IMG/VR virus record: IMGVR_UViG_3300046794_000135
Reading direction: 5' to 3' (one strand)
DNA: 64,000 bases
DNA from: an uncultured virus (IMG/VR IMGVR_UViG_3300046794_000135)
Taxonomy: Duplodnaviria > Heunggongvirae > Uroviricota > Caudoviricetes
Part shown: one piece after another, positions 128-43,148 of the stretch
Layout of the letters: every line of letters begins with the position of its first letter
How positions within the stretch are numbered: position 1 is the stretch's first letter
Notes under the pieces: model-generated
Seen by the model: the letters and a program-made list of their open reading frames with translations, nothing else
Database searches by the model: none
What the model was told of the DNA's origin: nothing
Position numbers and translations under genes: made by a program

Positions 128-338
128 TGAGGGCTTCGAAGCGGCCATCTTCAAATTCTTCCCTCGGACGAACCCAAAACGATCCATCATCGACGGAGCG
201 ATAAATTGCCACTTCCCTGTCATCGACGGATGGAGCCGAGAGATTGTTATGGTCGAACCAATCCTCAGCCTGCATCTTGCCGATGCCGATCAGGGCATAC
301 GTGCTGCCGCGCTTCTTATGTCTGTGTGTGGCCTTCAT
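105..338 (-). CDS. Small phage protein, DUF1653-like
   Basis: HRHKKRGSTY and VAIYRS...WVRPREEF pattern typical of DUF1653-like proteins. Confidence 0.6.
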   Translation of the reverse strand: MKATHRHKKRGSTYALIGIGKMQAEDWFDHNNLSAPSVDDREVAIYRSVDDGSFWVRPREEFEDGRFEALTTGGEEL

Positions 339-568
339 GGCTCGTACCCCGCCTTAGAACCACCGTATGCAGCGCCAACGCGGCCATACAAGCACAGTGT
401 CCAATCCGCTCCATAGCTCTTCGCGCACTGGCGAACGAGATCATCGTCCAGATATTCTTTCGTGTCGGGGTCTTGTCCCTGACCGTAGAGGGTCAGGTCA
501 CCGAGCGGTAACTCGACCGCGCCAGTGATGTCGTTCCTTGCTACGATGATGTAATGAGCGCTGCTCAT
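335..568 (-). CDS. Hypothetical phage protein
   Basis: ATGA-coupled with neighbouring genes. Confidence 0.6.
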   Translation of the reverse strand: MSSAHYIIVARNDITGAVELPLGDLTLYGQGQDPDTKEYLDDDLVRQCAKSYGADWTLCLYGRVGAAYGGSKAGYEP

Positions 569-855
569 GGCTCGTATCCTTGTTGCTTGGCTTTGGTGAG
601 GGCTTGAATAGCACTTCGAATTGGCGGTGTGCCGCCCAGCGCCGGGAAAGATGCTGTCACTATTCCAGCAATGTCGTTCAGCGCCGCCACCAGATCGCGG
701 ATCAGAGCGTCCTTGGCTTCGTTGGCTTGCGGGGCGATGGCGAGGTAGGCGCGGATGGCGCGGTTCATGTCCTCTCGGACCTCTTTCGTCATGACGGGGT
801 TATACCCATACCAAGCTTCAACAGCCGCCTCGATTGCTTGCTCGTGCGTTGTCAT
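565..855 (-). CDS. Hypothetical phage protein
   Basis: ATGA-coupled with neighbouring genes. Confidence 0.6.
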   Translation of the reverse strand: MTTHEQAIEAAVEAWYGYNPVMTKEVREDMNRAIRAYLAIAPQANEAKDALIRDLVAALNDIAGIVTASFPALGGTPPIRSAIQALTKAKQQGYEP

Positions 856-1250
856 GCTGCTTTCTCCCCGACGATCGTCAACTGCACTCCGGCGTAGCCG
901 CCGTCGTCAAGCTTGACAGCCGCCATGACGTTGCGCTGCGCCCACTCCAGAGTGTGGAGGCAATCCGTCGTGTCGCCCTCGTCGTCAACCGGCCCGACAA
1001 GGAGCCCCTTGCCGAAAAGCAGGTGTGGGTATCCGCGCACTGCGAAGAGATCGTTCGCCTTGAAGCTGCCCTCGTCGTCAACGTAGATCGCGTGGCCGTC
1101 GTTGAGGCGCGCGGCGTCGATGCAGTCGCACTCTGTCAGCGCGTAAATCTGGTCAAGGCCGCCTGGCTGAACGTACTCGACCGCTGTCAGTGTCAGCAGC
1201 GAGGGGTCAATCAGGATGGCCTTGACCTTGCGTTGATTAACTTCTGTCAT
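852..1250 (-). CDS. DUF3846-like phage protein
   Basis: KAILIDP, IYVDDEG and GKGLLVGPVDDEG motifs; start placed at ATG 1250. Confidence 0.55.
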   Translation of the reverse strand: MTEVNQRKVKAILIDPSLLTLTAVEYVQPGGLDQIYALTECDCIDAARLNDGHAIYVDDEGSFKANDLFAVRGYPHLLFGKGLLVGPVDDEGDTTDCLHTLEWAQRNVMAAVKLDDGGYAGVQLTIVGEKAA

Positions 1251-1251
1251 G

Positions 1252-1419
1252 TCAGTTTTCCTTTTTGGGTGTGGTGATGAACTCGAAAAGCGCGGAACAG
1301 CCGAAGGCGATGACCAAGACACCGATGACGCCACCGACCGTGTTCCAGTGAAAATGGTGGGAAAGGCTGCCACCTACCCACGGGACCAAGAAGGCCCAGA
1401 AGTGCTGTTTGCTTGTCAT
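1252..1419 (-). CDS. 55-aa predicted membrane protein (not in ORF track)
   Basis: Manual translation MTSKQHFWAFLVPWVGG...GVIGVLVIAFGCSALFEF...; abuts the next gene start. Confidence 0.5.
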   Translation of the reverse strand: MTSKQHFWAFLVPWVGGSLSHHFHWNTVGGVIGVLVIAFGCSALFEFITTPKKEN

Positions 1420-1579
1420 CGCTGTCATCCTGTCAGGGGGTGTCTGCGTTTGGGTGCTGGAAGCGCGGGAGGAGGCGCTTCCAGCTTGTGTGGCTTGTCA
1501 TGTGGAAACTTAATCCAGCGGGAGCATGGGCCACACAACGTATCCGGCTTTCTGCGTCGCTAGTTCGGCACGGGGCCGA

Positions 1580-2059
1580 TCAGGCGACCTTGGAAAGCGC
1601 TGCTTCCAAGCGGAGCGTGGCGATCTTTTCAATGCACTCCTCAAAGAGCATTTCCGCCGTCTGGATCGTCTTGCGGAGCTGGTCGTGGGCGATGGCGAGC
1701 GCCATCATTTCGCCGTCGCCGATCGCTGTCAGCGTGTCAGCCAGTTCAGCAGGGCGAAGCGTTGCGAAGATGTCGCCAGCACGGGCGCGTTCAGCCAGGC
1801 GCTTCAGCGCAATGGCGCCGGGAACGGTGTCGCCGGTGGTCGGATCGGTCACAAGGATCGCCTTGTATGTGGCACCGCGGAAATGGTCGAGGACGGCCTG
1901 CCCCTCTTTGGTGAGGTTTTCACCCATGATCGCGGCTTGCTCTTCAGCAGGGATTTCCTGCCGACGCTGGGCGTACCCGGCGGAGTCTGCCACGTCGAAG
2001 CCAACTTTCGTTGCCGTTTTGAAATCCTGCGCGAACTTTTTCAGATTGATGTCGGTCAT
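1580..2059 (-). CDS. Hypothetical phage protein
   Basis: 159-aa ORF with GAGG RBS, downstream of operator-like sites. Confidence 0.7.
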   Translation of the reverse strand: MTDINLKKFAQDFKTATKVGFDVADSAGYAQRRQEIPAEEQAAIMGENLTKEGQAVLDHFRGATYKAILVTDPTTGDTVPGAIALKRLAERARAGDIFATLRPAELADTLTAIGDGEMMALAIAHDQLRKTIQTAEMLFEECIEKIATLRLEAALSKVA

Positions 2060-2199
2060 AACTGCGCTTGCCTCTTATGTTTGGGTCAGTGAGGCGGCTC
2101 GTTGTCCGCCTCTGGATGTGACTTAAACATAGGCTTGCGTTCAACACAAGAGAAAATATGCGTCTCACACAAAATATTTTTGGGCCGCTGATTTCGGCA

Positions 2200-2470
2200 C
2201 TGGGAGGGGCGTTTGTAAACGAGTGTTCAATGTGTAGAAGGGGTGTCGTTACCAGAGGCTGATTTTGTAATTCGACAAGGCCATTTGTAACGGGCTCGAC
2301 CTATAATCTACTAATTTTATGGGGTACAGCTCAAAGCCCTGAAAACGCACGGTTTTGTTTTCGATTTGTAATCGGTATCTCTGTAACTCTATATTAAAAT
2401 AATAAAGTAATATTAATAATCATTAATTATTATAGAAGGGTAAAAGGGATTTGCGTTACAGAAGGTACAC
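2200..2470. other. Candidate replication origin of phage A
   Basis: Non-coding; TGTAA at 2214, 2266, 2286, 2367, 2382 and inverted at 2456; very AT-rich stretch about 2388-2435. Confidence 0.45.
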
Positions 2471-2581
2471 CAAAATCGGGCCTCCGAACCCCGTGCCAAA
2501 ACGACCCCGCGCCGCTTTGACAGGACAGCACTTGTGTCAGTAACAATTTCCACAGCAGAAAACTTGTGGAAGGGTTATCAG

Positions 2582-3076
2582 ATGCGCGTGCTAGGGATCG
2601 ATCCCGGTGTGACCGGAGCGTGGGCGATTGTCGAGGTCGCGCCGGAGCTGGGGTCAAAGCCCGTGCTTGTCGGTGTCGGCGATCTGCCTGCCAAGTCTGT
2701 CAAGATGTCCAAGCGTGTCGCGCTCCGCCTCGATGCCCCAAGAGTCGGCGAGCTGTTCGATCGGCTGACAGATGAGCACGAGCTTGACAGGATCATTGTC
2801 GAGCGCCTGTCCGGCGGACCAGGTATCACGTCGAGCACCGCGTTCAGCCTTGGCATGACAGCCGGGATCATTGACACGCTGCTGGCAGAGCGCCGCCTGG
2901 AGTTTTCCACCGTGCCTCCGAGTTCATGGAAACGGGCGCTCCTCGCCCCCGCCGGTAAAGCCGCATCGCGGCAACACGCCGTCAAGCTCTTCGGCTCCAA
3001 CAAAGGCTGGGAGCGGGAGAAGGATCACAACCGTGCCGAGGCTGCGATGATTGCGCTATGGGGTGCGCTGAGATAG
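2582..3076 (+). CDS. RuvC-like Holliday junction resolvase
   Basis: MRVLGIDPGVTGA N-terminus, IIVE, P-xx-WK and DHNRAEAAMIA motifs. Confidence 0.85.
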   Translation: MRVLGIDPGVTGAWAIVEVAPELGSKPVLVGVGDLPAKSVKMSKRVALRLDAPRVGELFDRLTDEHELDRIIVERLSGGPGITSSTAFSLGMTAGIIDTLLAERRLEFSTVPPSSWKRALLAPAGKAASRQHAVKLFGSNKGWEREKDHNRAEAAMIALWGALR

Positions 3077-3569: not shown

Positions 3570-4451
3570 TCATTCGTCCTCCGGCTTGCCATATTCGGCT
3601 ATCATCTTCTTGAGCCACGCTTCGGGCGCCTTAACAATATCGTCCGAGACGTACGGCGCCGCAATGAAAAGCATTTCGCCAATGCCAAGCGAACGTTGCC
3701 AATATTCCTTGCCGTGTTCGCGCTGGAAATCGACGCTGTTATATCCCCACGCCAAGCCGTGGTTGTCGCTACGCTTCCCGCCATCGCTGTCAATAAAGCC
3801 GTACGCCATTTGACGCGACACGCCCGTCGCGCAAAGCAAGTGCGCAGCGCGTGCCAAGTCGATCGGCGCGCTATCAAGTCGTGCCACAACGGCGCGCGAC
3901 GTGCGGGTGTTTTCATCACCATACGGCAAAGCCGACGCCGCAATATAGAGCGATACCGGGCGCGTTGCTGACAGTATTCTGACAAGAGCTAGAATAGCGG
4001 CGCCGCGCTTTTCAAGTGTAGTCGCGTCAATGCCACCCGATGAAACACAATCGACAACAATATTGAGCGGCGCCTTTTCACTTTCAACGCGGCGCCGTTG
4101 ACGCATATTCATTGGATTGCCAGCAAGGAAGGCGCCAACATTTGGCGCGCCACCCGTCATTGCGTTTTCAACTTGGAAGTTGCTTCCGTTATACCCTGTC
4201 AAAGCTTCAAGCTTTGACAGGAATTCGTCCGAAGCAGCAACACGCGCCAAATCACCGGTGCGGCACTTGCGCACCGTGGTTTCAAGCTTGTCGCCACCGC
4301 TCCATTTGTCGCCACCCGAATGATTAGGAAGGCTCATTGCCTGAACGGCATCGGTAAACTCGCTGACAGTATCAAAGACTGTCACAACGTCGACTTTGCC
4401 AGCGTATTTCTTGCCACCCAATGAAGGGAAAGTTTGCTCGATACGTGCCAT
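3570..4451 (-). CDS. vWA-like domain protein, partner of the AAA+ ATPase
   Basis: LNIVVDCVSSGG MIDAS-like strand, directly downstream of a MoxR/CobS-type ATPase. Confidence 0.65.
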   Translation of the reverse strand: MARIEQTFPSLGGKKYAGKVDVVTVFDTVSEFTDAVQAMSLPNHSGGDKWSGGDKLETTVRKCRTGDLARVAASDEFLSKLEALTGYNGSNFQVENAMTGGAPNVGAFLAGNPMNMRQRRRVESEKAPLNIVVDCVSSGGIDATTLEKRGAAILALVRILSATRPVSLYIAASALPYGDENTRTSRAVVARLDSAPIDLARAAHLLCATGVSRQMAYGFIDSDGGKRSDNHGLAWGYNSVDFQREHGKEYWQRSLGIGEMLFIAAPYVSDDIVKAPEAWLKKMIAEYGKPEDE

Positions 4452-4452
4452 G

Positions 4453-5613
4453 TTAGCGGCCTTCCACAATCTTGATTTGATCAACTGACAAGCCAGCAAG
4501 GTATGTCATTTCCGCTACCTCATCGGAGGACATGCCAGCGGCAAGAAGTGCGGCGCCCGCTTGGCTATGGCGCGGATCGATCACAATCTTGACACCCGCG
4601 CTTTGCGCCCGCGCCCGTGCGGCTTGCACCCGCTTGGCAAATGTCGGATTGCCGGAAATCGCCTGTTCAAGCGCGACATCATATGTCCAATGAAACTTGA
4701 CAGGGAAACGTGACAGAAACGCCGCATCGATTTTCGCGCGCCCGATAAACTCCGCCGTTGCGCCCTGTCCGAATGTGTTAGCGGCGCCAATGCAAATGAA
4801 GTCTTTGTGACGGCGCACGGGTGTCGCGCTATCAGGGAAAGAAGCAACGCCATTGGCGAGCGCGGCGTTCAGTGCGAGCAAAGCCGAATTGTCAGAAGCG
4901 TCTACCTCATCGAACAAGTAAACGCCGCCGTGCTCATATGCCTGCCGGAATGGCGTTGTGTGATACGTGCCACCCGCGTCAACAAAGCCAAGCAATTCGT
5001 GCGTCATGGAAAGCGCGCCGTTGAAGTAGAAAGGCACGCCCATTGCCGTAGCGGCTTGTTCAGCGGCGTGCGTCTTGCCGCTACCAGTCGGGCCCGCGAT
5101 CCATACGTTTGGCGCGATGCCGTTTGCCATGCGGGAGGAAAGCACGCGCAAGAGCTTTTCAAAGAGCGGGTGGCACTGGCCGTCACTCTGCCATTGCGTG
5201 CCATCAGTGCGCGTCATTTCGATGCGAACAAGAGCCGTGCCTTCAAGCGCGGCCTTAACCTTTTCCGTGACAATGGCGTCAAGCTTTTCATCATCGATCG
5301 ATGGCGAAAGCAAAGCGGAGAGCGCTGCGAGTGCATCGGCTTTGTTGCCGTCAAACTTACTTGCGGAAGGAAGGCGCCCGGCAAGTGTCGCGGGTGTCGC
5401 GCTGTCATCTTCCTTTGCAGGAACGGCGGAGATAACCGCTGTCACGTCGATGCCAAACCGTGCGGCAACTTCAAGGCAAAGCGAAGATGTCAAATCAGCG
5501 GTGCTAATGCCGCGCTCGCGACGATAGCTATCCCATTGTGCATCAGCGGCAATAGCGCGACGCAAAGCCGTGCGCTGTTCAGCGGAGAGTGAAACTTTCA
5601 TAGCAGCGGTCAT
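4453..5613 (-). CDS. MoxR/CbbQ/CobS-type AAA+ ATPase
   Basis: Walker A GPTGSGKT, Walker B YLFDEVD, AANTFG and arginine-finger DAAFLSRF. Confidence 0.9.
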   Translation of the reverse strand: MTAAMKVSLSAEQRTALRRAIAADAQWDSYRRERGISTADLTSSLCLEVAARFGIDVTAVISAVPAKEDDSATPATLAGRLPSASKFDGNKADALAALSALLSPSIDDEKLDAIVTEKVKAALEGTALVRIEMTRTDGTQWQSDGQCHPLFEKLLRVLSSRMANGIAPNVWIAGPTGSGKTHAAEQAATAMGVPFYFNGALSMTHELLGFVDAGGTYHTTPFRQAYEHGGVYLFDEVDASDNSALLALNAALANGVASFPDSATPVRRHKDFICIGAANTFGQGATAEFIGRAKIDAAFLSRFPVKFHWTYDVALEQAISGNPTFAKRVQAARARAQSAGVKIVIDPRHSQAGAALLAAGMSSDEVAEMTYLAGLSVDQIKIVEGR

Positions 5614-6035
5614 GTCTTTGTATCCTTTGTATCGGGTTAGCGGCGCGGTCTTTTGCCGTGCTCGCACTCCCTTTCTGGCATGTCAGATTATGTTCTGTCA
5701 ACAATACATTGTGTCAGCCGCACAAAGATTTTGTGTTTACCGCAAGGCGAGTTTGCGATCTCCATTGCACGCCAAAAGTGAATAGGCTCTATTTCGCCCA
5801 CAGAACGCCGCTGACAGGCGTTTCGATTTTTGACGGTGCATTTATTACCCGATAGGCCAAACGCCATTCTCTAGTTCTAGTTGTGTGAACAATCGTCCTA
5901 CACCCGTTCATTTTTGTTGAACAAACACAAGCGGCTTGCGTTCATTTGACAACTATTATGCAGCGCCCTAATGATACGTAATAACATTACATTCAGGGCA
6001 TTGTTCAATAATGAACAATAGGGATTGAAACAGAG

Positions 6036-6452
6036 ATGGTGTTTCAGAAAGGGCAAAGCGGAAATCCGGGTGGCAAACCAAAAGCCGCTGATGCGATTTT
6101 GCGGCGCCTTGGAAGTCTCGGAATGCGCGCCGTCGCACGGCTTGAAACCTTGCTCGATAGCGAGAATGAACAGATTGCCAAGGGCGCCGCTGACACAATC
6201 CTTGCCTACACGCTTGGCAAGCCGCGCCAGCAAGTGACAGCGGAAATCACCCATAATGTGGGCGCCAGCGCTGCGCACTTGATGGCGCTGGCAAGCAAGC
6301 CACACCCTGTTCTGGACCTGTCAGCCAATGCTAACACGTTGATAACATTGGATAATCCGGCATCTACATCTAAACAGCCAATTAAGACGCGCCGCATATC
6401 TGAAGCGGAAACAATAGACGCGACGCCTGTTATTGACAGCCAAACAGAATAG
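6036..6452 (+). CDS. terS: Terminase small subunit-like protein
   Basis: FQKGQSGNPGGKPK N-terminus; immediately upstream of TerL. Confidence 0.7.
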   Translation: MVFQKGQSGNPGGKPKAADAILRRLGSLGMRAVARLETLLDSENEQIAKGAADTILAYTLGKPRQQVTAEITHNVGASAAHLMALASKPHPVLDLSANANTLITLDNPASTSKQPIKTRRISEAETIDATPVIDSQTE

Positions 6453-8101: not shown

Positions 8102-8102
8102 C

Positions 8103-11165: not shown

Positions 11166-12206
11166 ATGACTATCACCGACACGCCTAATGGCATCGGACT
11201 CGCAGAAGCCGCATCACGTTTCGAAGCTCTTTCCGAACAGGACAACACAGAGCTCCCCGCAGACGATCAGGCTGACGAGAACGCCGAGACCGAACAGGTC
11301 GAAGGCACTGCGGCAGACACTTCCGACGAAGAGACGCCACCTGACGACGAAGAAGAGCTCTCCGAAGAGGAAAGCGATCCTTCCGAGGAAGAGGGTGCTG
11401 ACGAAGAAGAAGCCACCGACGACGAAGATGACACGACACCCGACGAAAAGCTGTTGGAGCGTCCTTTCACCGTAAAAATTGGCGGTAAGGAAGAGACGGT
11501 CACGCTCAAGGAGGCTCTGGCTGGTTATCAGCGGACGGCGGATTACACGCGCGGCAAGATGGCCCTCGCCGATGAGCGGAGGTCTTTCGAAGGCGAGCGG
11601 CAGGCCATTCAGGTCGAGCGCTCCCAGTACGCCCAGCTCCTCCCCGTGCTTATCCAGCAGATTGAAGCTGGCATGGAGGCGGAACCCGATTGGGCCGATC
11701 TGTTGGCGAACCGCCCGGAAGAATATCTCAGGCAGGAAGTGGCTTGGCGGGAAAAAGCGGCACGTCGTGACGCAGCCCTACAAGAACAGCAACGCCTGAA
11801 CGAGCACGCACAGCAAGAACAGCACGCGGCCATCGTGGAAGCCATCCAGACTTCCGGTCGTGAATTGGCAAAGGCCATGCCCCAGTGGCAGGACTCCAAG
11901 CGCTGGGACGCAGACCGTGCGAAGCTCTTGGCCTACGGCCAGACAGTCGGCTTTGCCGAAGAGGAACTACAGCAGACCTACGATCACCGTGCGGTGCTCG
12001 CGCTCTACAAGGCGATGCGGTACGACGAGCTGATGGCTAAAAAGCCTACGCCGAACGCGCCGAACAGCCCCAAGCCTGTATCTCCCGGCAGCCCAAACAC
12101 GGCCAAAACCCGCAAAACCTCCGATTTGACCCGCGCAAAGCAGCGTCTTGGAAAGTCTGGCAGCGTCCGTGACGCAGCCTCCCTGTTTGAGCAACTCGAT
12201 CCATAA
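11166..12206 (+). CDS. Scaffolding protein
   Basis: Acidic N-terminus, TVKIGGKEETVTLKE-GYQRTADYTR motif, upstream of capsid. Confidence 0.85.
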   Translation: MTITDTPNGIGLAEAASRFEALSEQDNTELPADDQADENAETEQVEGTAADTSDEETPPDDEEELSEEESDPSEEEGADEEEATDDEDDTTPDEKLLERPFTVKIGGKEETVTLKEALAGYQRTADYTRGKMALADERRSFEGERQAIQVERSQYAQLLPVLIQQIEAGMEAEPDWADLLANRPEEYLRQEVAWREKAARRDAALQEQQRLNEHAQQEQHAAIVEAIQTSGRELAKAMPQWQDSKRWDADRAKLLAYGQTVGFAEEELQQTYDHRAVLALYKAMRYDELMAKKPTPNAPNSPKPVSPGSPNTAKTRKTSDLTRAKQRLGKSGSVRDAASLFEQLDP

Positions 12207-12220
12207 GGAAGTGACGAGAA

Positions 12221-13192
12221 ATGGCAGCGAAGCCCACCGGTACTGTTGACCGGTACGACATTAACAAGGCCGTGCGCGAAGAGCTCTCGGACATCATCTA
12301 CAACATCGCGCCGGAAGACACGCCGCTCATGTCCAACATCGGACGTGGCAGCGTTGGCAACACCTACTTCGAATGGCAGACCGACGGTCTCGCCGCTGCG
12401 AACGGTGACAACGCACAGATCGACGGTGGCGACGCCGCCAACGACACCCGTGCGCCGACGAACCGTCTCGGCAACTACACGCAGATCATGTCGAAGACCA
12501 TCCAGACCTCCGGCACTGCGGAAGCAGTGAACAAGGCTGGTTACAAGAGCGTCATGGCCTACGAAAAAGCCAAGGCGTCTTCGGAAATCAAGCGTGACAT
12601 GGAAGTCCGTCTTGCCGGTGGCAAGGCTGCTGTCGGTGGTTCCACCGGTACGGCTCGCCAGACTGCCGGTTTCGCCGCGTTCCTGACAACCAACGTTGAC
12701 AAGGCTGCCACCGGCACCGCCCCGACGCTTTCGGCAACCACGGACGGCTACCCGAACGCTGCGTACATCAACGGCACGGCCCGCGCCTTCACCGAAACCA
12801 TCCTGAAGAACGTCATCCAGCAGGTCTGGGCTTCTGGCGGCACTGTCGGGCTGGCGATGGTCGGCGCGAAGCAGAAGGGCGTTGCCTCTGGCTTCGCTGG
12901 TCTCGGCCAGAACCGCTTCAACCAGAGCAAGGCGGAACAGACCACGATCATCGGCGCCGCCGACGTGTACGTCTCCGACTTCGGCAACGTCACCTTCGTG
13001 CCGAACCGCTTCATGCCTGCTGACGCCGCGTATCTGGTGGACCCGGAATACGCTTCGGTCCAGTACCTCCGCGACTTCCGCACGAAGCCGCTGGCAGAAA
13101 ACGGTGACAGCAAGCGTGAAATGCTCCTGGTCGAGTTCGGCCTGAAGGTTCACACCGAAAAGGCCCACGGCATCGCCCGCGACCTGACCTAA
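12221..13192 (+). CDS. Major capsid protein (DUF5309/SU10-like)
   Basis: REELSDIIYNIAPEDTP, NYTQI and YVSDFG motifs. Confidence 0.88.
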   Translation: MAAKPTGTVDRYDINKAVREELSDIIYNIAPEDTPLMSNIGRGSVGNTYFEWQTDGLAAANGDNAQIDGGDAANDTRAPTNRLGNYTQIMSKTIQTSGTAEAVNKAGYKSVMAYEKAKASSEIKRDMEVRLAGGKAAVGGSTGTARQTAGFAAFLTTNVDKAATGTAPTLSATTDGYPNAAYINGTARAFTETILKNVIQQVWASGGTVGLAMVGAKQKGVASGFAGLGQNRFNQSKAEQTTIIGAADVYVSDFGNVTFVPNRFMPADAAYLVDPEYASVQYLRDFRTKPLAENGDSKREMLLVEFGLKVHTEKAHGIARDLT

Positions 13193-31120: not shown

Positions 31121-31331
31121 ACCGCTCGACCGTGATTTTCAGGCCGAGCTCAGTCGCGTAGCGGAGCAGCGTATCGAGCTTCGGCATCATGCCGCCGCGT
31201 GCCCAGCTCCAGTAGGTCGCGTGCCCCATGTTGCAATTGCGTGCCAGCCGGGACAGGGCGATGCCCTGCTCTTCGCGGGCGCTTTCCATGACAGCGAGAA
31301 GGTCGTCGGGTGTCTTGATGGTGGTCTTCAC
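31119..31331 (-). CDS. XRE-family HTH protein
   Basis: AREEQGIALSRLA...PKLDTLLRYATELGL pattern. Confidence 0.75.
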   Translation of the reverse strand: MKTTIKTPDDLLAVMESAREEQGIALSRLARNCNMGHATYWSWARGGMMPKLDTLLRYATELGLKITVER

Positions 31332-32194
31332 TTCGGTTGCTCCAGTTCGATGACTTCCAGTCCGATGTACTTTGCCAGCGCGTACTCTGTGGCGGCGCCG
31401 TGGCTGTCATACCAGTTCGGAAGCAAGGCGATTGCGTCCGCGTCCTTGCAAATCCACGCGGTGTATTCCGCGAAGGCGGCGCGGACATCAAACCCGCCGG
31501 TTTCCCGCTGGATCAGCCCGGTCTCCGCAGGGTTGAAGACGGTGTGGCCCTCGGCACGGAGCTTGGCGGCGGCTTTATTGAAGGCTGGGTAGTTGAAGTG
31601 TTCGAGCCCTGACATCGGCCCTGACAGGTAGATGCGCTTCGGTCCGGGCTTCGGGAGGCTCGCCTCGATCAGCCCAACCACCGTGTCAACGTAGCCGTAG
31701 AGGTGTTCGAACCCGCCCTTCCGCTCGTTGAACACGTTGTAGTCGCTTTCAATCTCCTGATGTTCGCTGGAATGCGCGGCACCAGAAGATTTCTCCTTCC
31801 ATGTGTTGACAACCCTGACGATGACGCCGCCCGCCGCGCGGATCGCTTCCGCTTCGTTCGGGAAGCGGCAATCCTCCACGACAACGAAAGCGTGTTGGGC
31901 CGCCTCACGCTGCCAAAGCTTCACCCAAAAATCCGGCCCGATATGCTCCCGGCCCCACTCGGTGCCGAGCGTCTGCATGGCGTGGCGCGGGGTCTTGCCG
32001 CAGAGGAGATCGGAGGGCTTTTCCTTGTTCGTGCCCTCGATCTCGTTGTCAGTCAGGCCGATCGCCGCCACCATCTTCTTGAGGCCACCGGCAAAACGCA
32101 CGGGCTCATAGTCGTAGGCGCTTTCGAGGTAGCGGGCGACGGTGGACTTCCCCGCACCGGCTTCGCCGATCAGACCGATAATAATTTTTGTCAT
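31328..32194 (-). CDS. dNMP kinase fused to a DUF4406-like domain
   Basis: GEAGAGKS, TPRHAMQTLGTEWGR, DCRFPNE; C-terminal IYLSGPMSG...FNPAE...SHGAATE. Confidence 0.85.
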   Translation of the reverse strand: MTKIIIGLIGEAGAGKSTVARYLESAYDYEPVRFAGGLKKMVAAIGLTDNEIEGTNKEKPSDLLCGKTPRHAMQTLGTEWGREHIGPDFWVKLWQREAAQHAFVVVEDCRFPNEAEAIRAAGGVIVRVVNTWKEKSSGAAHSSEHQEIESDYNVFNERKGGFEHLYGYVDTVVGLIEASLPKPGPKRIYLSGPMSGLEHFNYPAFNKAAAKLRAEGHTVFNPAETGLIQRETGGFDVRAAFAEYTAWICKDADAIALLPNWYDSHGAATEYALAKYIGLEVIELEQPK

Positions 32195-32225
32195 CTGCGC
32201 ATCTCCTTTGTGTGTTGAAAACAAG

Positions 32226-35670: not shown

Positions 35671-36300
35671 TCACTTGTGTTTTACACAAGTAATGGCGTG
35701 TGAAAAAACAGGCTCTTCCTGTCTTTCAGTTTCGGTGTTCATTGCGCGCCAGTGATAGCGCAGCGTGGACGCGTCGATGCCCGTCCGCCGTGACACTTCG
35801 AACGGCTTAAGACCGAACGAAAAGTACAGCCGGGAGACCATGACACGCGCAGTGCAGGCATCGGGGAACCGTGACGAGGAGCACACCGCGTCCCATGTCA
35901 CCGCGTGCGTCTCAAGGATGTGCGAGATCGCGTCAGTGAAGTCGTGCGTGTCATGCGGGTGCGGCTTGTAGCCACCCATGCGCCGCTCCGGGTCACGCGA
36001 CGCCAGCGCGATCTCCACCCGGCGAGCTTCGTCGGCGGGATAGGCGAACCGGATACGCTCCCCGGTTTCCTTGTCTGTCAGCTTCTCCGCGAGCCAGAGA
36101 TCGTCAGCGATCTGCTTCTCAAGCTGCGCGGCCCGCTCGGCTTCGATCCGTTTGCGCTCTTCGGCTTCGGCGAGGATGCGACGGATGTGGTTTTGCGGCT
36201 TTGGACGCATGTGGAGGCGTGCCTTGACACCTTCGTAGTGTCTAGCCAGGCGGCGCTCCAGGCTGTTGTCAGACCCAATCGTCAACGCTGTCATTGTCAT
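35671..36300 (-). CDS. Protein with DnaA C-terminal-like HTH
   Basis: VTWDAVCSSSR...AR...SRRTGIDASTLRY pattern. Confidence 0.5.
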   Translation of the reverse strand: MTMTALTIGSDNSLERRLARHYEGVKARLHMRPKPQNHIRRILAEAEERKRIEAERAAQLEKQIADDLWLAEKLTDKETGERIRFAYPADEARRVEIALASRDPERRMGGYKPHPHDTHDFTDAISHILETHAVTWDAVCSSSRFPDACTARVMVSRLYFSFGLKPFEVSRRTGIDASTLRYHWRAMNTETERQEEPVFSHAITCVKHK

Positions 36301-37393
36301 CTTCCTTTTGCTTTCTTGCGAGTTTCATCCCCGAACTCTCAGCAGAGATCAGATCGGAGATATCGAGGGTGAGGTTCTTCTCCCGTGCGACCGCTTCGAC
36401 TTGTGCGGGCGACAGGATCACCTCCTTGGTGAAGTCTTTTCCTGCCAGACCTTCTGACAGGAGACGCTGGTTGACAGCACGCTCGTCTTTCCATTTGCGG
36501 ATCGCGCGCTTGGGAATAAGTTCCCATTCGCCGTTGATGTCGCCGCCTTCTGACAAGACGCGCTCGGCGTGTTGCTCGACTGATTTGATCCAGTCCTTGG
36601 CGATCTCGGCGGCTGCCAGAACTTGGTGGAGCTCGGCAGGGGTGAGGTCTGCGGGCGCCGCGTCGTCAAGCGCGAAGTCGAGCTTGGCGTTCTCGCTGAC
36701 AAAATCCCGGATGGTCGGGCATGTCGGCTTCGCCCGACAGAACCGGCAGTGCGAGCCAGCCTTGGCCGGTGGATCGTCGGACTCGGCGAGATCGCCCGCC
36801 TCGATCAGCTTGCGCTTCACTTCGTCCAGCTCTTCCCGGCTGATGGTTGTTCTCTTGGTTCCGCCGTTGCGGGGCTGAACGATGACAAGCTCGATCTCGG
36901 TTATCTTGTCAGCGATCGACGCCTTCAGGCTTTCGAGGATCGAGATCGCGTAGCTGGCGAGCTGGGCGTTGACAGCACCGTCGTCGTCTTGGACTTCAAC
37001 CGCGACCCTCCCGCACTTCAGGTCCGCGATTGTCAGGCGCGAACCGTTGATGATCACCGCGTCGGCGGTGCCGTACCAGAACTTGTGCAGGTGCGGTGCC
37101 TCGGAACGCTTCTCGACGTAGAGCCGTCCGCCTTTGACCAAGCCGCGCACGGTGCTGACATGGCTGTCAACGATCCGACGCTGGTCTTGGGTGAGGTCGG
37201 CGAGCTCGTCGGCCTCGGTTTCCGGGTGGAGGAGGATGCGCTCGGCGACACCGTGGAGCATCGTTCCCTCGATCGCGGCTTCGCTGGAGGGGCTTTCCGG
37301 CAGTCCTATCGAACGCTGGTAGTGCGCAGGGCACTTGAGCGTACGGTAGGAGGTGCTGCCGAAGAGCGGGGTATGGGACGGCTTTGCGGTCAC
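36269..37393 (-). CDS. DUF2800/Cas4-like PD-(D/E)XK exonuclease
   Basis: CP, GTMLH, GTAD, DLKCG, QLASYA and HCRFCRAKPTC. Confidence 0.85.
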   Translation of the reverse strand: MTAKPSHTPLFGSTSYRTLKCPAHYQRSIGLPESPSSEAAIEGTMLHGVAERILLHPETEADELADLTQDQRRIVDSHVSTVRGLVKGGRLYVEKRSEAPHLHKFWYGTADAVIINGSRLTIADLKCGRVAVEVQDDDGAVNAQLASYAISILESLKASIADKITEIELVIVQPRNGGTKRTTISREELDEVKRKLIEAGDLAESDDPPAKAGSHCRFCRAKPTCPTIRDFVSENAKLDFALDDAAPADLTPAELHQVLAAAEIAKDWIKSVEQHAERVLSEGGDINGEWELIPKRAIRKWKDERAVNQRLLSEGLAGKDFTKEVILSPAQVEAVAREKNLTLDISDLISAESSGMKLARKQKEDDNDSVDDWV

Positions 37394-37926
37394 GCGCGCC
37401 GGGCCTTCCATATGACGGTGCCCACGAAGGCGGTGCCGAGTATCATCAGCGCCCACATCCAGAAGCCCGCGCCTTCGTCTTTCTCCTCCGGCTGGGGCTG
37501 CGCCTGGATAACTTGCGGCGCGGGCGTGACAGGCGTGACAGGCTGGGCCTCGGTCGGCACTGGTCCCTGCACGGGTGCGGACCCCTGCGGAACGACGATG
37601 ACGGATGGCGCCGCCGCCGGGGCCGGGGCGTGGTTGTTGCTCAACATGTTCCCCCAGAGATAGCCTGACAGGAAACCGCCGCCGCCACCGAACCCGCCGA
37701 AGCCGTTGTCATAGTGGTGGTTCTGGATGACCGTGGTGTTGCCGGAATTGTAGGACCGGGGCGCCGAGTAGGACCGGGGCGCCGAGTAGGACCGGGGCGC
37801 CGAGTACGACCGGGTGGACGACCGGAAGGTGCCCGACGAACGGAAGCCGCCGCCCCCACGGTACGCGGCGTGCGCGCCGGTTGTCATGACAAGCGCCACG
37901 GCGGTTGCGAGAACAAGTTTCTTCAT
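37390..37926 (-). CDS. Exported Gly/Ser/Pro-rich membrane-anchored protein
   Basis: Signal peptide ending AHA, SYSAPR x3, C-terminal transmembrane helix. Confidence 0.75.
   Translation of the reverse strand: MKKLVLATAVALVMTTGAHAAYRGGGGFRSSGTFRSSTRSYSAPRSYSAPRSYSAPRSYNSGNTTVIQNHHYDNGFGGFGGGGGFLSGYLWGNMLSNNHAPAPAAAPSVIVVPQGSAPVQGPVPTEAQPVTPVTPAPQVIQAQPQPEEKDEGAGFWMWALMILGTAFVGTVIWKARRA
37750..37814. repeat. 18-bp tandem repeat, three full copies plus a partial
   Basis: GTAGGACCGGGGCGCCGA at 37750, 37768 and 37786. Confidence 0.92.
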
Positions 37927-39266
37927 GCTGCTTCTCCGTCAATGATGGCCGAGACAATCCGGGCCTTGCGTTCGAGGGTTTTGGTGACACGTTCGTCAAA
38001 GCTGCCAGCGATGACGACCGACGTGGCGTGGACCTGTCCGGTCTGGCCGCCGCGATGGGCACGGGAAATGATCTGGTCCTTGATGCCGGGAACCCACGGG
38101 TCTTCGGCGATGATGACGCGCTGCGCGATCTGCAAGCCGTCCGTGCCGGTGCCGCCCGCCTGTATCTGCACGACGATGACATGACAGTCGGGGTCGTTGA
38201 TGAAGGCTTCTTTGGCGTGCTGCTTCGCGCCCGCCGACATTTTGCCGTTGTAGATGACAGCGCCGTGGTCGTGGAGGTCGTTATATATGTGTGTTCCGCA
38301 AGCAGTATGTATGTAAAACACAATTATCTTGTCGTGCGAAAGCAACTCTTCCCTGACAAACTCCGCGACCTCTCCGGCCTTCTCCATCCCGATCAGCCGC
38401 CGGAGCGTTGATACCTGGGGATCGAAGTCTGTCAGCTCGCTGTCACCGAAGTCGTCTTGGCCGAGGATCGCCATGAGCTTCTGGAGGACCGGATCGAGCG
38501 AGGCGTCCACCTTGATCGGGCGCGGCGGCAGCCGGAAGCTGTCGATCAGCGGCTCCTTCAGCTCTTTGAGTACCGCGGACTTTTTGACACGGGACATGTG
38601 CGGCGCCAGCAGTTTGTTCAGGAGCTCCGGCTTGCGCGCGCCTGTCACCTTGAAGCCGTAGGGCGTGTCATACCCGGCGCACCATTCCTGCACCCACTGG
38701 GCGCGGTTCTGGATGTCGAACTGTGTCAGCAGGTGCGGGAACACCCGCGACACGACCACCCACAGATCAGAAGGATCGTTCATGATCGGCGTGCCTGTCA
38801 GCATCCAGACGCGCGCGGACTGCTTGAAAAGCGTTGCGGGGCTTTCCTTGCGGGCGCCGAAGATCGCTTTCGTCCACTTGGTGCTCGGCGACTTGCAGTA
38901 GTGCGCCTCGTCAAGTGTCAGCGCGTCCCATGTCAGCTTCATCGCCGACTTCCAGACTGTTTGGGCGATCACGCCGTGGTAGCTGACAATCACGATCTCG
39001 GCACGGGGATCGACCGAAGTTGTGGTCTTCTCGATCAGTTGTGTTTGAAACGCAAGCTCACGGGCGTGGAAATCCCATTGATACCGGACGTTGGCCGGGA
39101 CAATGACAAGCATCCTGACAGGCTTCTTTCCGCCCGCTTCCGCCTTCAATCGCCCGAAGGCTTCAAGCGTGACACGGGTCTTGCCCGTACCTGGCTCCCA
39201 TGCCAGCAGCCGGTGGCCGCTGACAAGGTGCGGGATTTCTTCAATCTGGTGTTGCCAAAGGTTCAT
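37923..39266 (-). CDS. SNF2-family helicase
   Basis: PGTGKT, LDEAH, LTGTP and QIISRAHRGGQ. Confidence 0.9.
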   Translation of the reverse strand: MNLWQHQIEEIPHLVSGHRLLAWEPGTGKTRVTLEAFGRLKAEAGGKKPVRMLVIVPANVRYQWDFHARELAFQTQLIEKTTTSVDPRAEIVIVSYHGVIAQTVWKSAMKLTWDALTLDEAHYCKSPSTKWTKAIFGARKESPATLFKQSARVWMLTGTPIMNDPSDLWVVVSRVFPHLLTQFDIQNRAQWVQEWCAGYDTPYGFKVTGARKPELLNKLLAPHMSRVKKSAVLKELKEPLIDSFRLPPRPIKVDASLDPVLQKLMAILGQDDFGDSELTDFDPQVSTLRRLIGMEKAGEVAEFVREELLSHDKIIVFYIHTACGTHIYNDLHDHGAVIYNGKMSAGAKQHAKEAFINDPDCHVIVVQIQAGGTGTDGLQIAQRVIIAEDPWVPGIKDQIISRAHRGGQTGQVHATSVVIAGSFDERVTKTLERKARIVSAIIDGEAA

Positions 39267-39478
39267 TCTATAGCCCTGTTGAAACAGTAGAGGAGGAAGA
39301 GAGCAGCGACGACGCCAAGTGCCCAATGCACCGACCAGAGCCCGTAAACGATGGCTCCTCCGATCGCGAGGACGAGGACGATCCCGATCAGCTTTCGGAT
39401 CAGGTAAACAATCCCCTTGGCAAGCCCGATGAAACCACCATCAAAGTAGCCCATCGGTGTCGTCTTCCATCTATTCAT
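39263..39478 (-). CDS. Small membrane protein
   Basis: Hydrophobic helices; overlaps neighbouring genes. Confidence 0.55.
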   Translation of the reverse strand: MNRWKTTPMGYFDGGFIGLAKGIVYLIRKLIGIVLVLAIGGAIVYGLWSVHWALGVVAALFLLYCFNRAIE

Positions 39479-39739: not shown

Positions 39740-39955
39740 TCAGTGTCCTTTCATCTTGTTTCGAAGTTCGCTGATTGCGTTGCGTTCGGCGCGGGCGTCG
39801 GACGCCGACACCGACACCGTGCTTCGAACCGTGCCGCCATCCGGTTTTGTGAAATCCACAACCAGATGTTTGTTCTGCCGGATGATCTGGAAGCCTACGG
39901 CTCCGGCGCCGAAGCTGATGCGGGTGAGCATGGAATTGACGCGCGTCACAAGCAC
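39740..39955 (-). CDS. Hypothetical protein
   Basis: NKHL...TVSVSASD-RA-RN pattern; follows Xis. Confidence 0.55.
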   Translation of the reverse strand: MLVTRVNSMLTRISFGAGAVGFQIIRQNKHLVVDFTKPDGGTVRSTVSVSASDARAERNAISELRNKMKGH

Positions 39956-40143
39956 TCCTCCCCATTCACAAATCGCAGGAGGCTTTCCTTTGAGATGAGC
40001 CGACGCTTGCCGACTTTCACAGAACGGAGCTTGCCTTTGGCCAGTAGCTCACGGATGTAGCGCACGGAGAGCCCGATCGCCTGCGCGGCTTCATCGGCGT
40101 TATACGCGAGCTTTTCTACTCCATTTGAGGTATTCACAAGCAT
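39946..40143 (-). CDS. Excisionase/Cox-like HTH protein
   Basis: AYNADEAAQAIGLS...GKLRSVKVGKRRLI; divergent from the repressor. Confidence 0.8.
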   Translation of the reverse strand: MLVNTSNGVEKLAYNADEAAQAIGLSVRYIRELLAKGKLRSVKVGKRRLISKESLLRFVNGEECL

Positions 40144-40259
40144 ATTGTGTTCTCCACACAAGGTTATTCGTTAACGATTTTGGCTATTATGGCCGCCACA
40201 AGTCTTAACGGGTGTTGACATCTTGTTGTTTCTACGCCAACTTCTTGTGCATAAGACAA
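40125..40259. promoter_or_regulatory. Phage A immunity switch with clustered TTGYG-N5/7-CRCAA-like operators
   Basis: Sites at 40125, 40145, 40187, 40223 and 40245; TTGACA at 40215. Confidence 0.7.
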
Positions 40260-40285
40260 GTATCGAGTCGCAAGGAAAACGTAAG

Positions 40286-41034: not shown

Positions 41035-41679
41035 TCAGACGTAGGCTTGAGCCAGCCGATCCAGCCGGTCCTTGAGCTTCCTGATCGCCTCCACCGACTG
41101 TCTGCGGGTGGTGGCCGTGCCCTTGCCCTCGATGTTGGCGGCGATTGCCTCCAGATCGATGACAGACATTGACAGCCCGGTGCGCACGGTCGCACGCTTC
41201 CCGTTGAGCTCGTCCAGTCGGGCTTCAAGGCTGGCGACCTCTTGCTCCAGTAGTTTTGTCTCTGATGCTGTCATGTCAGCTTCCTTTACTAGTTCGAAGC
41301 AGCGTGATGTCGCGCCGGGGTTCCCCTTGATGATGACGATGGTGCCGGGTTCCACCCCCAGCACGGTGTAAACCCCGCCAACCACGCCGTATTTGTTGTT
41401 GTAGGTGAATGAGTCATCGACGCGCCGCACTCGATCGCCGACCTGGAGCTCATTGCCGTTCTTGTCACGGGCTATCACGTTGTCAGGTTCCTTCTTGAAA
41501 GCGTGGGCCGACGCACCGGGGGCGCCGTCGATCACGACAAGGCTGCCCGCCTCATTTATATCCAGCACGGTGTAGACTTCATCGAACGCGCCGTATTGAT
41601 GGGGCCAGTCCGACGCGACCACCCGGCGCACGCGGTCGCCGACCTTGATCTCGTTGCCATGATTGTCACGGGGTGTCAT
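41035..41679 (-). CDS. Protein with an internally duplicated SH3-like domain and C-terminal coiled coil
   Basis: RDNHGNEIKVGDRVRRV and RDKNGNELQVGDRVRRV repeats. Confidence 0.65.
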   Translation of the reverse strand: MTPRDNHGNEIKVGDRVRRVVASDWPHQYGAFDEVYTVLDINEAGSLVVIDGAPGASAHAFKKEPDNVIARDKNGNELQVGDRVRRVDDSFTYNNKYGVVGGVYTVLGVEPGTIVIIKGNPGATSRCFELVKEADMTASETKLLEQEVASLEARLDELNGKRATVRTGLSMSVIDLEAIAANIEGKGTATTRRQSVEAIRKLKDRLDRLAQAYV

Positions 41680-41832
41680 GGCGGCTGATCTCTTGGTTGA
41701 TGCGGTCGGCGCGGGCGTACTGGTGCTCGGCGGCGGCGAGGCCCGCAACGATCACAACGATCGCGACCAGGAATAATGTTGTCGCCTCGATGATGTCACG
41801 CTGACAAGCGATCAGCTCGCGGAGGAGCGGGC

Positions 41833-42069
41833 TCATTCTGCCGCCCTCTTGACGATCTCGACGGCGTACCCGTCGAAGTCGCCGTAGCATGTCAACGCAT
41901 GGGCCTCGATCTCGATCAAGTCCTTGCGATCGTCGTTGTGCAGTCTGTCATGGATGTACCGGGCGACGATCTCGTCAACGGCCTTCTCGTCAAGTTCGAG
42001 CTTGGCGACGAGGATTTTCTCCGTGACCGTCACTTCGCGCTCGGACTCCTCAAATGTCATGTCTGTCAT
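41833..42069 (-). CDS. Hypothetical protein
   Basis: Co-directional, ATGA-coupled. Confidence 0.55.
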   Translation of the reverse strand: MTDMTFEESEREVTVTEKILVAKLELDEKAVDEIVARYIHDRLHNDDRKDLIEIEAHALTCYGDFDGYAVEIVKRAAE

Positions 42070-42140
42070 GGTGTCAGGTTTCCAGTGGGCGGGAGGTGGA
42101 CGGCGGGGTGAACCGCCGCCCAGGCTGTCAAGCTGACAGG

Positions 42141-42674
42141 CTAGTGGAGCGTGGCTCCGGCCTGTTTGGCGGTCGAGCCACCTTCCTGTTCGCGACGTGC
42201 CAGCTCATCTACGCAGTCGCCGCAGCCGCAGAACGACAGCGCCTCGTCAGTGACTTCGCCCCTGTCAAAGTTGTTGCTGACAGCAAGCTCCTCCAAGAAA
42301 GCCGAAACCGATTTGCCGTCCCACGCGATGCGGTCCCGGAGCTCGTCTTCGTTGATCGTGACAGAAGTGAACTCGCCGTTCTCATCCTTGGGGCCGAGGA
42401 TCAGCGCACCGCCGTCGATAATGAGCGTGCCGGGGTCGGACGCCTTGGTTTCGAGCCTCGCACCCGGTGCGGCGTCCGTGTTGACGAAGGCCCACGCCGC
42501 ACCGCCTTTTTTACCGGAGGAGATGATGACGTTGCCGCCGATGACGGGCGTCTGTTCGTTCTTGCCGGTGGCGAGATAGAGGGCTTCAAAAGCCGCCTTG
42601 CGCGGCCCGTCATACGTCACCGCGGTGATTTCCAGAGTGCTCGGAAGTACTATGTAAGCTCGTGGAGCGGTCAT
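42141..42674 (-). CDS. Hypothetical protein
   Basis: 177 aa with AAGGT RBS, downstream of operator-like sites. Confidence 0.65.
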   Translation of the reverse strand: MTAPRAYIVLPSTLEITAVTYDGPRKAAFEALYLATGKNEQTPVIGGNVIISSGKKGGAAWAFVNTDAAPGARLETKASDPGTLIIDGGALILGPKDENGEFTSVTINEDELRDRIAWDGKSVSAFLEELAVSNNFDRGEVTDEALSFCGCGDCVDELARREQEGGSTAKQAGATLH

Positions 42675-42752
42675 TTTATTACCTTTTGCTTGGGTTGTGT
42701 TATTTGCATACTACTTGCGCCACACACATATACTAGCGCAAAAAAAGGGGTG

Positions 42753-43148
42753 TCAGCCGGAGCTGACACCTGACATTTTCTTGGCACGGTCGAGGACCGC
42801 CCGAAGACGGGCGATCTCTTTGGCGTCCTCGTGCTTCTCTTGAAGGTATTTACCCTTGTATGTGGAGTTGTGTTCGTACTCCCCAATGGCCTCGTCCAGC
42901 GCCGCCACCAGTTCGCGGATCAACGCCTCGGCGTTCATCGCCCGCTGGTGCATCGAGTCGAAGCTGTCACGCCATGCGCGTGAGCTTTCGTCTCTCTCCC
43001 CCTTCAGCCTGTCGTTCTCTTCTCTGATCTCCTTGAGGGAGAGGCGGAGGGAGGTGATTTCGGCGGAGGCATCAACGATAGCGCAATGATATTCTCCGCC
43101 TTCACGCCTGTCGAAATACCGCCATAGGCGCTCTACGATGTCCGTCAT
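42753..43148 (-). CDS. Hypothetical protein spanning the shared repeat (MTDIVERL...)
   Basis: Start at 43148 coupled to the upstream stop; coiled-coil composition. Confidence 0.7.
   Translation of the reverse strand: MTDIVERLWRYFDRREGGEYHCAIVDASAEITSLRLSLKEIREENDRLKGERDESSRAWRDSFDSMHQRAMNAEALIRELVAALDEAIGEYEHNSTYKGKYLQEKHEDAKEIARLRAVLDRAKKMSGVSSG

Follow-up and report, generated by a model that had tools for sequence, protein, structure and literature searches.

The window and the word TGWCA

The DNA analysed here is IMG/VR record IMGVR_UViG_3300046794_000135, a window of 64,000 nucleotides from an uncultured virus (Caudoviricetes) in which two contigs, phage A (128-43040) and phage B (43168-64000), are concatenated. 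The feature under study is a pentamer. TGACA and TGTCA are reverse complements and together make up a single double-stranded, quasi-palindromic site, TGWCA, which phage A contains 372 times (196 TGACA and 176 TGTCA; 8.7/kb, or about one per 115 bp) in nearly all of its genes as well as in its intergenic DNA. Phage B contains 21 copies (11 TGACA and 10 TGTCA; 1.0/kb), at a ratio to expectation of 0.58.

Judging by its sequence, phage A is a member of the phiM5-like temperate podoviruses. Its gene content, taken from PHROGs and Pfam scans, includes genes for terminase, portal, scaffold, capsid and ejection proteins, and a replication-recombination module of PrimPol-helicase, family A polymerase, gp2.5-like single-stranded DNA-binding protein (SSB), PD-(D/E)XK exonuclease and SNF2-type helicase. 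It also encodes an integrase, a repressor-like helix-turn-helix protein, RuvC and an AAA_5 ATPase that is paired with a DUF7192 protein. Phage B is an unrelated temperate-phage contig, with genes for a RecE-like exonuclease, Erf, a CI-type repressor, a DNA methyltransferase, terminase and portal, and it served as an internal negative control. A repeat of exactly 127 identical nucleotides, which holds no TGWCA, lies at 1-127 and again at 43041-43167, the end of the phage A contig. We read this repeat as the overlap that a k=127 assembly leaves where a circular contig closes. The phage A contig is therefore circular and phage B a separate contig, and the window is not a tandem prophage pair. The open reading frame (ORF) at 43145-43999 (minus strand) spans the contig joint by chance.

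Under Markov models of order 1, 2 and 3 the number of TGWCA sites expected in phage A is 75.0, 105.7 and 208.0 respectively, and the site is the first-ranked pentamer under each of them. A dinucleotide shuffle of the whole window gave 111.6 +/- 9.8 sites against 393 observed, a number that was reached in 0 of 100 shuffles. A synonymous shuffle, done per gene and preserving both protein sequence and codon usage, gave 74.3 +/- 7.6 sites for 47 phage A genes (at most 100 in 1000 shuffles), against 328 observed, with nearly all genes enriched relative to this null. Amongst the 16 W-centred quasi-palindromic pentamers TGWCA is the sole one enriched, and TGSCA reaches merely 1.2-1.3x. The flanks of the site carry no more than 0.12 bit at each of 20 positions in phage A; the commonest hexamers are CTGACA (150) and CTGTCA (145), and both hexamers and heptamers extend the site just through codon context.

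The preliminary description of this DNA had claimed that TGACA and its complement saturate phage A and that phage B is near background. Both statements were borne out, the first more strongly than claimed (372 sites against 75 expected), and all five of the local counts that it had made by eye are exact (8 in 38761-39240, 3 in 1414-1435 and 6 in 901-1260 of phage A; 1 in 53691-55046 and 2 in 58558-59859 of phage B). The enrichment also outlasted the protein-preserving codon shuffle that it had proposed as a check; a dicodon-preserving null, which it had named too, would retain TGWCA itself, because the word bridges two codons. It had further stated that the word is often built from uncommon codons, which is only partly correct: ACA, TCA and the NNT codons are costly, but GAC (72% of Asp codons), GTC (46% of Val codons) and CTG are not rare. 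In phage A, ACA makes up 16% of Thr codons and 68 of its 131 occurrences lie inside TGWCA; for TCA, 10% of Ser codons, the figure is 42 of 82.

Distribution, placement and turnover

The same enrichment was found in phiM5, a cultured Sinorhizobium phage of 44.0 kb (423 sites against 62 expected; 6.8x), and in five IMG/VR records: G001 (43.5 kb, 376 sites, 5.6x), the provirus G002 (42.9 kb, 391 sites, 5.6x) and the fragments G003 (5.9x), G004 (4.6x) and G005 (5.4x). With phage A itself (128-43040, 372 sites, 5.0x), all 7 of the 7 records nearest to phage A by capsid or portal protein are enriched, at 4.6-6.8x. Where an enriched record possesses a homologous capsid gene, the capsid is at least 66% identical to that of phage A; the capsid gene of G002 has no BLAST match to that of phage A, and its portal protein is 57% identical. 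At the DNA level phiM5 matches phage A in part of the terminase region only, at 77% identity.

About 160 more distant relatives are without enrichment. In the portal search 80 of 81 loci were not above 2x (maximum 1.38), and in the capsid-search computation 78 of 83 loci were not above 2x (median 0.74, maximum 1.44). MW202496 (0.83x), MW202711 (0.78x), MJing1 (0.52x) and LUZ24 (0.63x) show no enrichment, and neither do three other rhizobiophages, RHEph21 (0.73x), P106B (1.42x) and RHph_X2_24 (1.17x). The key control is MW202496, which shares portal (50% identity), PrimPol (45%) and polymerase (45%) with phage A. Host-type DNA was sampled as three 50-kb slices of the S. meliloti replicons pSymA and pSymB, 150 kb in all, with about one site per kb (53/62.5, 65/70.4 and 32/54.6 observed over expected; 0.59-0.92x), so that the density in phiM5 is some nine times that of the sampled replicons. 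The enrichment is confined to a single clade of rhizobial phages.

Within genes the word is written in two codon phases. Amongst the 328 genic sites of phage A, 213 are in phase 2 (xxT GAC/GTC Axx), 110 in phase 1 (xTG ACA/TCA) and 5 in phase 0. We call a place where synonymous codons could spell TGWCA an accessible position. Enriched genomes fill 35-41% of these (322/883 in phage A, 383/934 in phiM5, 335/964 in G001 and 351/925 in G002) and controls 3-9% (53/653 in MW202496, 52/584 in MW202711, 15/548 in MJing1 and 19/317 in phage B); for each of the four complete enriched genomes the odds ratio relative to the control occupancy lies at 6.0-7.9 (ln 1.8-2.1). Leu-Thr dipeptides are written with TGWCA in 52% of cases (phage A, phiM5 and G001 pooled). 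In 14 matched orthologs there are 21-23 accessible positions per kb in enriched genomes against 15-18 per kb in non-enriched genomes, which indicates that the protein sequences have shifted too. Non-coding density is 9.3-11.5 sites/kb and coding density 8.3-9.3 sites/kb, and fold-enrichment is alike (about 6-7x) at synonymous genic positions and in non-coding DNA. Since the signal survives synonymous shuffling and is as dense outside genes as within them, it acts on the DNA and not on the protein, as the preliminary description had argued. Since, furthermore, the word is absent as an enriched feature both from phage B (0.58x) and from host-type DNA, the simplest interpretation is a word that serves recognition along the whole genome.

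Beyond its density the word has little architecture. A check for strand skew found none (196 against 176 on the plus strand, with occupancy independent of gene strand), and a check of spacing found no preferred distance or relative orientation of sites. No pair or dyad of TGWCA is favoured in phage A, phiM5 or G001, where the N4 dyad arrangement occurs 4, 2 and 7 times. Placement over accessible positions is near random; in phiM5 alone the sites are spread more evenly than in simulations (variance/mean 0.93 against 1.45, P 0.002). The word is not a family of interspersed repeats (REP/MITE-type), there being no conservation outside the core at the 20 flanking positions. Nor does it look like the sigma-70 -35 element TTGACA: the preceding base is T at 83 of 372 sites and C at 150 (-10 partners not searched), and the genic location of 328 of the 372 sites, in two codon phases, counts against this identity.

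The preliminary description had listed a decoy for a host factor amongst the possible functions. TGWCA would then be a decoy or recruiting site for a host DNA-binding protein such as PhoB, whose S. meliloti half-site, TGWCAM, contains the word; in PMC2573895 the PhoB-box queries are CTGTCAT(N4)CTGTCAT and TGWCAM(N4)CYKTCAK. The commonest hexamers of phage A, CTGACA and CTGTCA, are in keeping with this. However, direct repeats at 11 bp, the spacing of the PHO box, number only 2, 2 and 1 in phage A, phiM5 and G001, the base after the word is mostly G (145 of 372, above A or C), and the other rhizobiophages are not enriched. The PhoB spacing is thus not seen in the phages, and we regard a decoy function as highly improbable.

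A Chi-like role has stronger precedent. Copies of TGWCA might attenuate a helicase-nuclease, whether the Cas4-type exonuclease and helicase that the phage encodes or a nuclease of the host or of a defence system, or might serve RuvC as a junction-cutting word, dense copies protecting the DNA or speeding resolution. The Chi of Bacillus is also 5 nt long, and RuvC-family resolvases cut at short words, of 4 nt, that occur about every 50-100 bp. Chi-enriched phages were reportedly the subject of work by Bobay et al. in 2013 (PMC3784561). An additive benefit of each copy fits such a role, and a two-ended linear genome would need both orientations. Chi-rich phages (lambdoid LLS, P1; PMC12315714) offer the one described example, amongst phages, of a word under positive selection throughout the genome, and Chi resembles TGWCA in being selected genome-wide, in being the most frequent word of its length, in not being explained by codon usage and in the turnover of its sites. 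The differences are considerable. Chi is the host's own word and is enriched in the host, whereas TGWCA is at 0.59-0.92x in the 150 kb of pSymA and pSymB, and the three other rhizobiophages lack the enrichment. Chi is oriented and terminally clustered (in PMC12315714, 20 of the 23 sites of LLS share one orientation and half lie within 22% of the genome), whereas TGWCA is neither: its two orientations are balanced, and the 6 sites in the terminal repeat of phiM5 are not a significant cluster, 6 or more occurring in 11% of equal-sized windows. LLS has one Chi per 1.86 kb against one TGWCA per 0.115 kb. Phages with their own recombination genes are described there as mostly without Chi sites, and the Chi-rich phages as lacking such genes, whereas phage A has an exonuclease, a gp2.5-like annealing/SSB protein and RuvC. 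Chi is the closest described precedent, with TGWCA showing none of host enrichment, orientation bias, terminal clustering or missing recombination genes, and we hold a Chi-like or junction-cutting role to be quite unlikely.

Comparison between members of the clade shows that sites come and go. Phage A and phiM5 have 45 filled positions in common where independence predicts 36 (odds ratio 2, P 0.017), and phage A and the closer G001 share 119 filled positions against 65 expected. Since positions private to one genome are filled as often as shared positions, it is density that is conserved and not position. Occupancy, summed over genomes, is high in the genes for PrimPol (94/197) and polymerase (77/177) and low in those for scaffold (2/32), capsid (17/73) and integrase (24/112), and it is also lower in the AAA_5/DUF7192 pair. 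The scaffold gene of phage A (11166-12206, plus strand) uses 1 of 13 accessible positions, its ortholog in G001 1 of 19, and the largest gap in the word (11429-12406) falls here. In our reading two effects keep occupancy low: in the most highly expressed genes the word is traded off against translational selection, and exchanged modules are incompletely ameliorated, as with the scaffold allele of phage A, which has no BLAST match in phiM5 or G002. An apparent depletion in the repressor gene was set aside as inconsistent (0/8, 6/10, 4/8 and 1/9 across genomes).

Turnover of this kind is also what would be seen if there were no reader at all, and the word had accumulated through a context-specific mutation or repair bias of the lineage's replication machinery, akin to very-short-patch repair. 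The equal fold-enrichment of coding and non-coding DNA, the paucity of the word in swapped-in genes, as slow amelioration predicts, and the lack of a recognisable reader gene would all suit this explanation. In E. coli, very-short-patch repair raises CCWGG-related words genome-wide, and it likewise involves a W-centred pentamer without fixed positions; the effect on TGWCA is several-fold above that in E. coli. Here, however, the one-mismatch neighbours of TGWCA stand at 0.31-1.47x, much as in controls, with none strongly depleted, and on this ground directed repair of the very-short-patch kind was rejected; the Pfam scans found no methylase or Vsr-type gene. We know of no precedent for a bias that targets a single word at each of its five positions. 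Such a bias would also leave unexplained the shift of protein sequences to permit about 25-35% more sites, and the resistance of highly expressed genes to the word fits a trade-off between two selective forces. We therefore consider a mutational origin improbable.

In form, TGWCA is like a type II site with an ambiguous centre, a 5-bp quasi-palindrome accepting W and not S, and shares its architecture with CCWGG, GGWCC and GAWTC. The word could accordingly be the target of sequence-specific modification or nicking by a symmetric reader of the restriction-modification type, encoded by phage or host, its density aiding protection or marking. Its standing as the one enriched word of the 16 W-centred quasi-palindromes suits this, as would local protection with a benefit that adds up copy by copy, and LUZ24-type relatives reportedly carry sequence-specific nicks. 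GAWTC occurs in 1, 0, 0 and 0 copies in phage A, phiM5, G001 and G002, against about 100 expected, and this near-total absence indicates that selection on such words is efficient in the TGWCA clade. On the other side, the avoidance of restriction sites has the opposite sign to the enrichment of TGWCA, and no cognate enzyme was found in phage A: the scans (58 ORFs against PHROGs, 20 + 84, or 104, against Pfam) detected no methyltransferase, transglycosylase, HNH, GIY-YIG or nuclease family beyond the exonuclease and RuvC, an unrecognised family being possible. A host enzyme would mark the host's sites too and would give no reason for enrichment. We think it unlikely that the word is a modification or nicking target.

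Other words in these phages and their relatives also depart from expectation. GAWTC is nearly gone from the enriched clade and stands at 49 against 87 expected in MW202496; GACTC/GAGTC is missing from phiM5 and G001, with 19 copies in phage A. The loss of GAWTC is strong avoidance of the CcrM/HinfI-type site GANTC. MW202496 (L085, MW202496.1) has 0 CACTG/CAGTG against 80 expected and 1 CCWGG against 77 expected, which suggests a host with TspRI-like and EcoRII/Dcm-like systems. In the IMG/VR relatives L038, L039, L015 and L174 CGCCA/TGGCG is raised genome-wide by about 1.9-3x; its copies are biased 2:1 between the strands and lack a flanking consensus. Codon-pair preference may account for it, or it may be a weaker counterpart of TGWCA. 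CCACC/GGTGG in L005, L007 and L043 (z up to 17) was rejected as a genome-wide word, being limited to a few 1-kb bins and looking like glycine-repeat coding.

Phage A genes weighed as possible readers

The gene at 35671-36300 (minus strand), which sits between the SSB and exonuclease genes, encodes a protein of 209 aa that starts with a long helix and ends in a domain like domain IV of DnaA; each of the four complete enriched genomes has it. Homologs in G001, G002 and phiM5 (gp40) are 58%, 29% and 25% identical (the last at E 2e-6). A profile search found 70 relatives, of which 32 were aligned, and 21 of these 32 match the Pfam family Bac_DnaA_C (PF08299); the product of 35671-36300 alone gives no Bac_DnaA_C match at E <= 0.01. 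The family profile matches DnaA chains in the PDB with E values of 1.7e-12 to 3.9e-10. In an AlphaFold2 model (pLDDT, a confidence score, 89.6) the C-terminal domain superposes on DNA-bound DnaA domain IV, with Foldseek giving a TM score by target of 0.76 to 3pvp_A (root-mean-square deviation 2.5 over 92 columns) and of 0.72 to 1j1v_A. Profile and model together point to a DnaA domain IV fold. One 90% cluster of the DnaA-domain-like protein, that of P0046, includes a hypothetical protein which NCBI lists for Rhizobium favelukesii (contig of 4.2 Mb), and a provirus of the TGWCA clade therefore seems to reside in the chromosome of a cultured Rhizobium.

In the major groove DnaA recognises a core of some five bases, TGTGG, which resembles TGTCA. 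By profile and model the clade protein has the same DNA-binding fold as the DnaA domain IV that reads DnaA boxes (PDB 1j1v and 3pvp). The boxes themselves are different, being 9 bp long and clustered at origins and a few promoters, whereas TGWCA is a bare pentamer scattered genome-wide. The DnaA-domain-IV-like protein is our leading single candidate for the reader, although its tie to TGWCA is a tentative one that we consider rather doubtful.

The PrimPol (28569-31019, minus strand) is joined in one protein with a D5/VapE-type helicase. Amongst the large genes its gene is the most fully occupied by the word, with 23 of 56 accessible positions filled in phage A. Primases choose template words of 3-5 nt, and the GTC of the T7 primase site is contained in TGTCA; TGWCA, or one of its strands, might thus be the template start word of the clade's PrimPol, more copies giving more lagging-strand priming. 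All four of the complete enriched genomes encode a PrimPol, and each TGWCA can be read on both strands. Primase words such as the GTC-containing pentamers of T7 are short and are read singly along the genome by a replication enzyme, as we suppose for TGWCA, but they are asymmetric and single-stranded, and a quasi-palindrome is unexpected for a single-strand reader. To our knowledge such words are not enriched. The word density is also roughly ten times what Okazaki-fragment spacing needs, and the sites show no strand polarity beyond codon preference. In MW202496 the PrimPol ortholog (45% identity) goes with no exceptional pentamer, the highest there reaching about 2.1x; a changed PrimPol specificity would reconcile this, so that the PrimPol idea is neither supported nor excluded by it. 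Overall a role as priming word seems to us distinctly unlikely.

Further candidates come from the recombination genes. The RuvC-like Holliday-junction resolvase (2534-3076, plus strand; phrog_1770, E 1.2e-24) is a candidate reader, and the Cas4/PD-(D/E)XK-type exonuclease of the replication-recombination module (36269-37456, minus strand; phrog_69, E 9e-68) and the SNF2-type DNA helicase (37923-39326, minus strand), whose gene contains the eight sites of 38761-39240, are candidates for Chi-like reading.

Presence and absence across genomes gave a different set of genes. Those that the four complete enriched genomes share and that close non-enriched relatives lack encode the AAA_5 ATPase, the DUF7192 protein, a Gp80-like fibre protein, tail-fibre parts and one internal virion protein, the first two being the sole non-structural genes with this pattern. 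The ATPase (4453-5667, minus strand; AAA_5 E 5.4e-10) is of the CobS/MoxR/NorQ type and is 67-80% identical within the enriched genomes, to which it is restricted amongst close relatives. Its partner (3570-4499, minus strand) gives a model (pLDDT 82.5) that resembles the von Willebrand A (vWA) adaptor domains of NorD; the Foldseek matches are weak, the best being to the NorQD complex 9qhd_G (E 5e-3), and the top ones are of vWA type. On these models the pair looks like a MoxR-type remodeller, and DUF7192 is unlikely to be a DNA reader. The pair was set aside as the reader on account of the vWA-like partner and of the rhizobiophages P106B and RHph_X2_24, which have ATPase homologs (41-46% identity) without enrichment. 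A DUF7192 homolog in L178 (G003:C1:15081-15989) contains one in-frame TAG, which may be a sequencing error, a pseudogene or a read-through codon.

Several other genes of the window were recorded. A fusion of deoxynucleoside monophosphate kinase with DUF4406 (nucleoside 2-deoxyribosyltransferase-like) lies at 31328-32224 (minus strand) and is also found in G001; at its place phiM5 has an NT5C-type 5'-nucleotidase, so that nucleotide metabolism differs within the clade. The immunity region holds a small HTH_17 ORF (excisionase/Cro-type by Pfam; 39946-40161, minus strand), and a DUF5681 ORF (Pfam; 6036-6452, plus strand), which immediately precedes the terminase gene, may encode the small terminase subunit. 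In phage B, 53691-55046 (plus strand) encodes a DNA methyltransferase-like C-terminal part that matches several PHROG methyltransferase families (best E 2e-24).

A proposed self word of the phage chromosome

We propose that TGWCA is a self word under selection and that its reader is a protein of replication or recombination encoded by the phage, a proposal that we find plausible though short of probable. Weak and roughly additive positive selection on each copy would keep about 9 TGWCA per kb in the phiM5-like podoviruses. Single copies would be read one by one by a protein that is active along the whole phage chromosome, and each added copy would bring a small gain, through more loading or initiation points or through better discrimination of phage from host DNA. 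The reader would most likely belong to the phage's own replication-recombination module. This module is ranked first since phage A has no recognised gene for a modification enzyme, and since the DnaA-domain protein, PrimPol, RuvC and exonuclease are conserved. In such a scheme the DnaA-domain-IV-like protein might contact the pentamer through the major groove and bring the neighbouring PrimPol-helicase and polymerase to phage DNA, or steer them there.

A number of points weigh against this proposal. The DnaA-domain-like protein evolves fast, with only 25-58% identity within the clade, and its residues at the DnaA DHTTV...H motif vary (DASTLRY, DGSTARY, HSTVSY, DESTIRT). The non-enriched MW202496 encodes a DnaA_C-like protein elsewhere in its genome and, moreover, has orthologs of all of the clade's replication genes, so that gene presence and absence cannot single out the reader. 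One site per 115 bp is far beyond the known needs of priming or origin function. Quasi-palindromes make up 1/16 of random pentamers, and this form better fits a symmetric, enzyme-type reader, as in restriction-modification, than a monomeric helix-turn-helix, primase or Chi reader; it is the chief point in favour of a modification or nicking target. Populations were sampled in 16 rhizosphere-metagenome runs as assembled contigs, with strain variants taken from the contigs of four runs. Three variants destroy a TGWCA and none creates one, against about 1.7 expected in sites (40 of 207 variants; low power). Strong constraint on individual sites is not apparent in these variants.

A broader form of the proposal is that the roughly 400 scattered copies constitute a private 5-bp self code, which sets the phage chromosome apart from host DNA and whose density is used by a phage protein, DnaA-domain-like or a symmetric enzyme, to aim replication, protection or processing. 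We regard this as possible, with some doubt. The Cluster O mycobacteriophages also carry many copies of a sequence, a 17-bp dyad, within phage genes, but these number in the tens, whereas the unit of TGWCA is a single pentamer in hundreds of copies with no preference for the N4 dyad. The preliminary description knew of no described system that explains the enrichment, and a literature search on the word, on over-represented oligonucleotides and on primase recognition, with the phiM5 genome paper (J Struct Biol 2017) not covered, gave no description either. There is a real chance that TGWCA is a new kind of self-marking.

What distinguishes the word is that it is private to one phage lineage and absent from the host, that it is 10-20 times denser than Chi in Chi-rich phages, and that selection on it is strong enough to fix rare codons and to shift protein sequences. 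Its density offers a simple signature for members of the lineage in metagenomes and prophage regions, and codon-optimising or recoding such phages could erase a functional signal. Since the temperate phiM5 of Sinorhizobium meliloti is available in culture, the reader can be sought at the bench. Earlier words under selection genome-wide, amongst them Chi, uptake sequences and KOPS, led in each case to a machine that reads the whole chromosome. If the self code proposed for the phiM5-like podoviruses is real, it would amount to a discrimination of self from non-self by the density of a motif, and not by the modification of bases.

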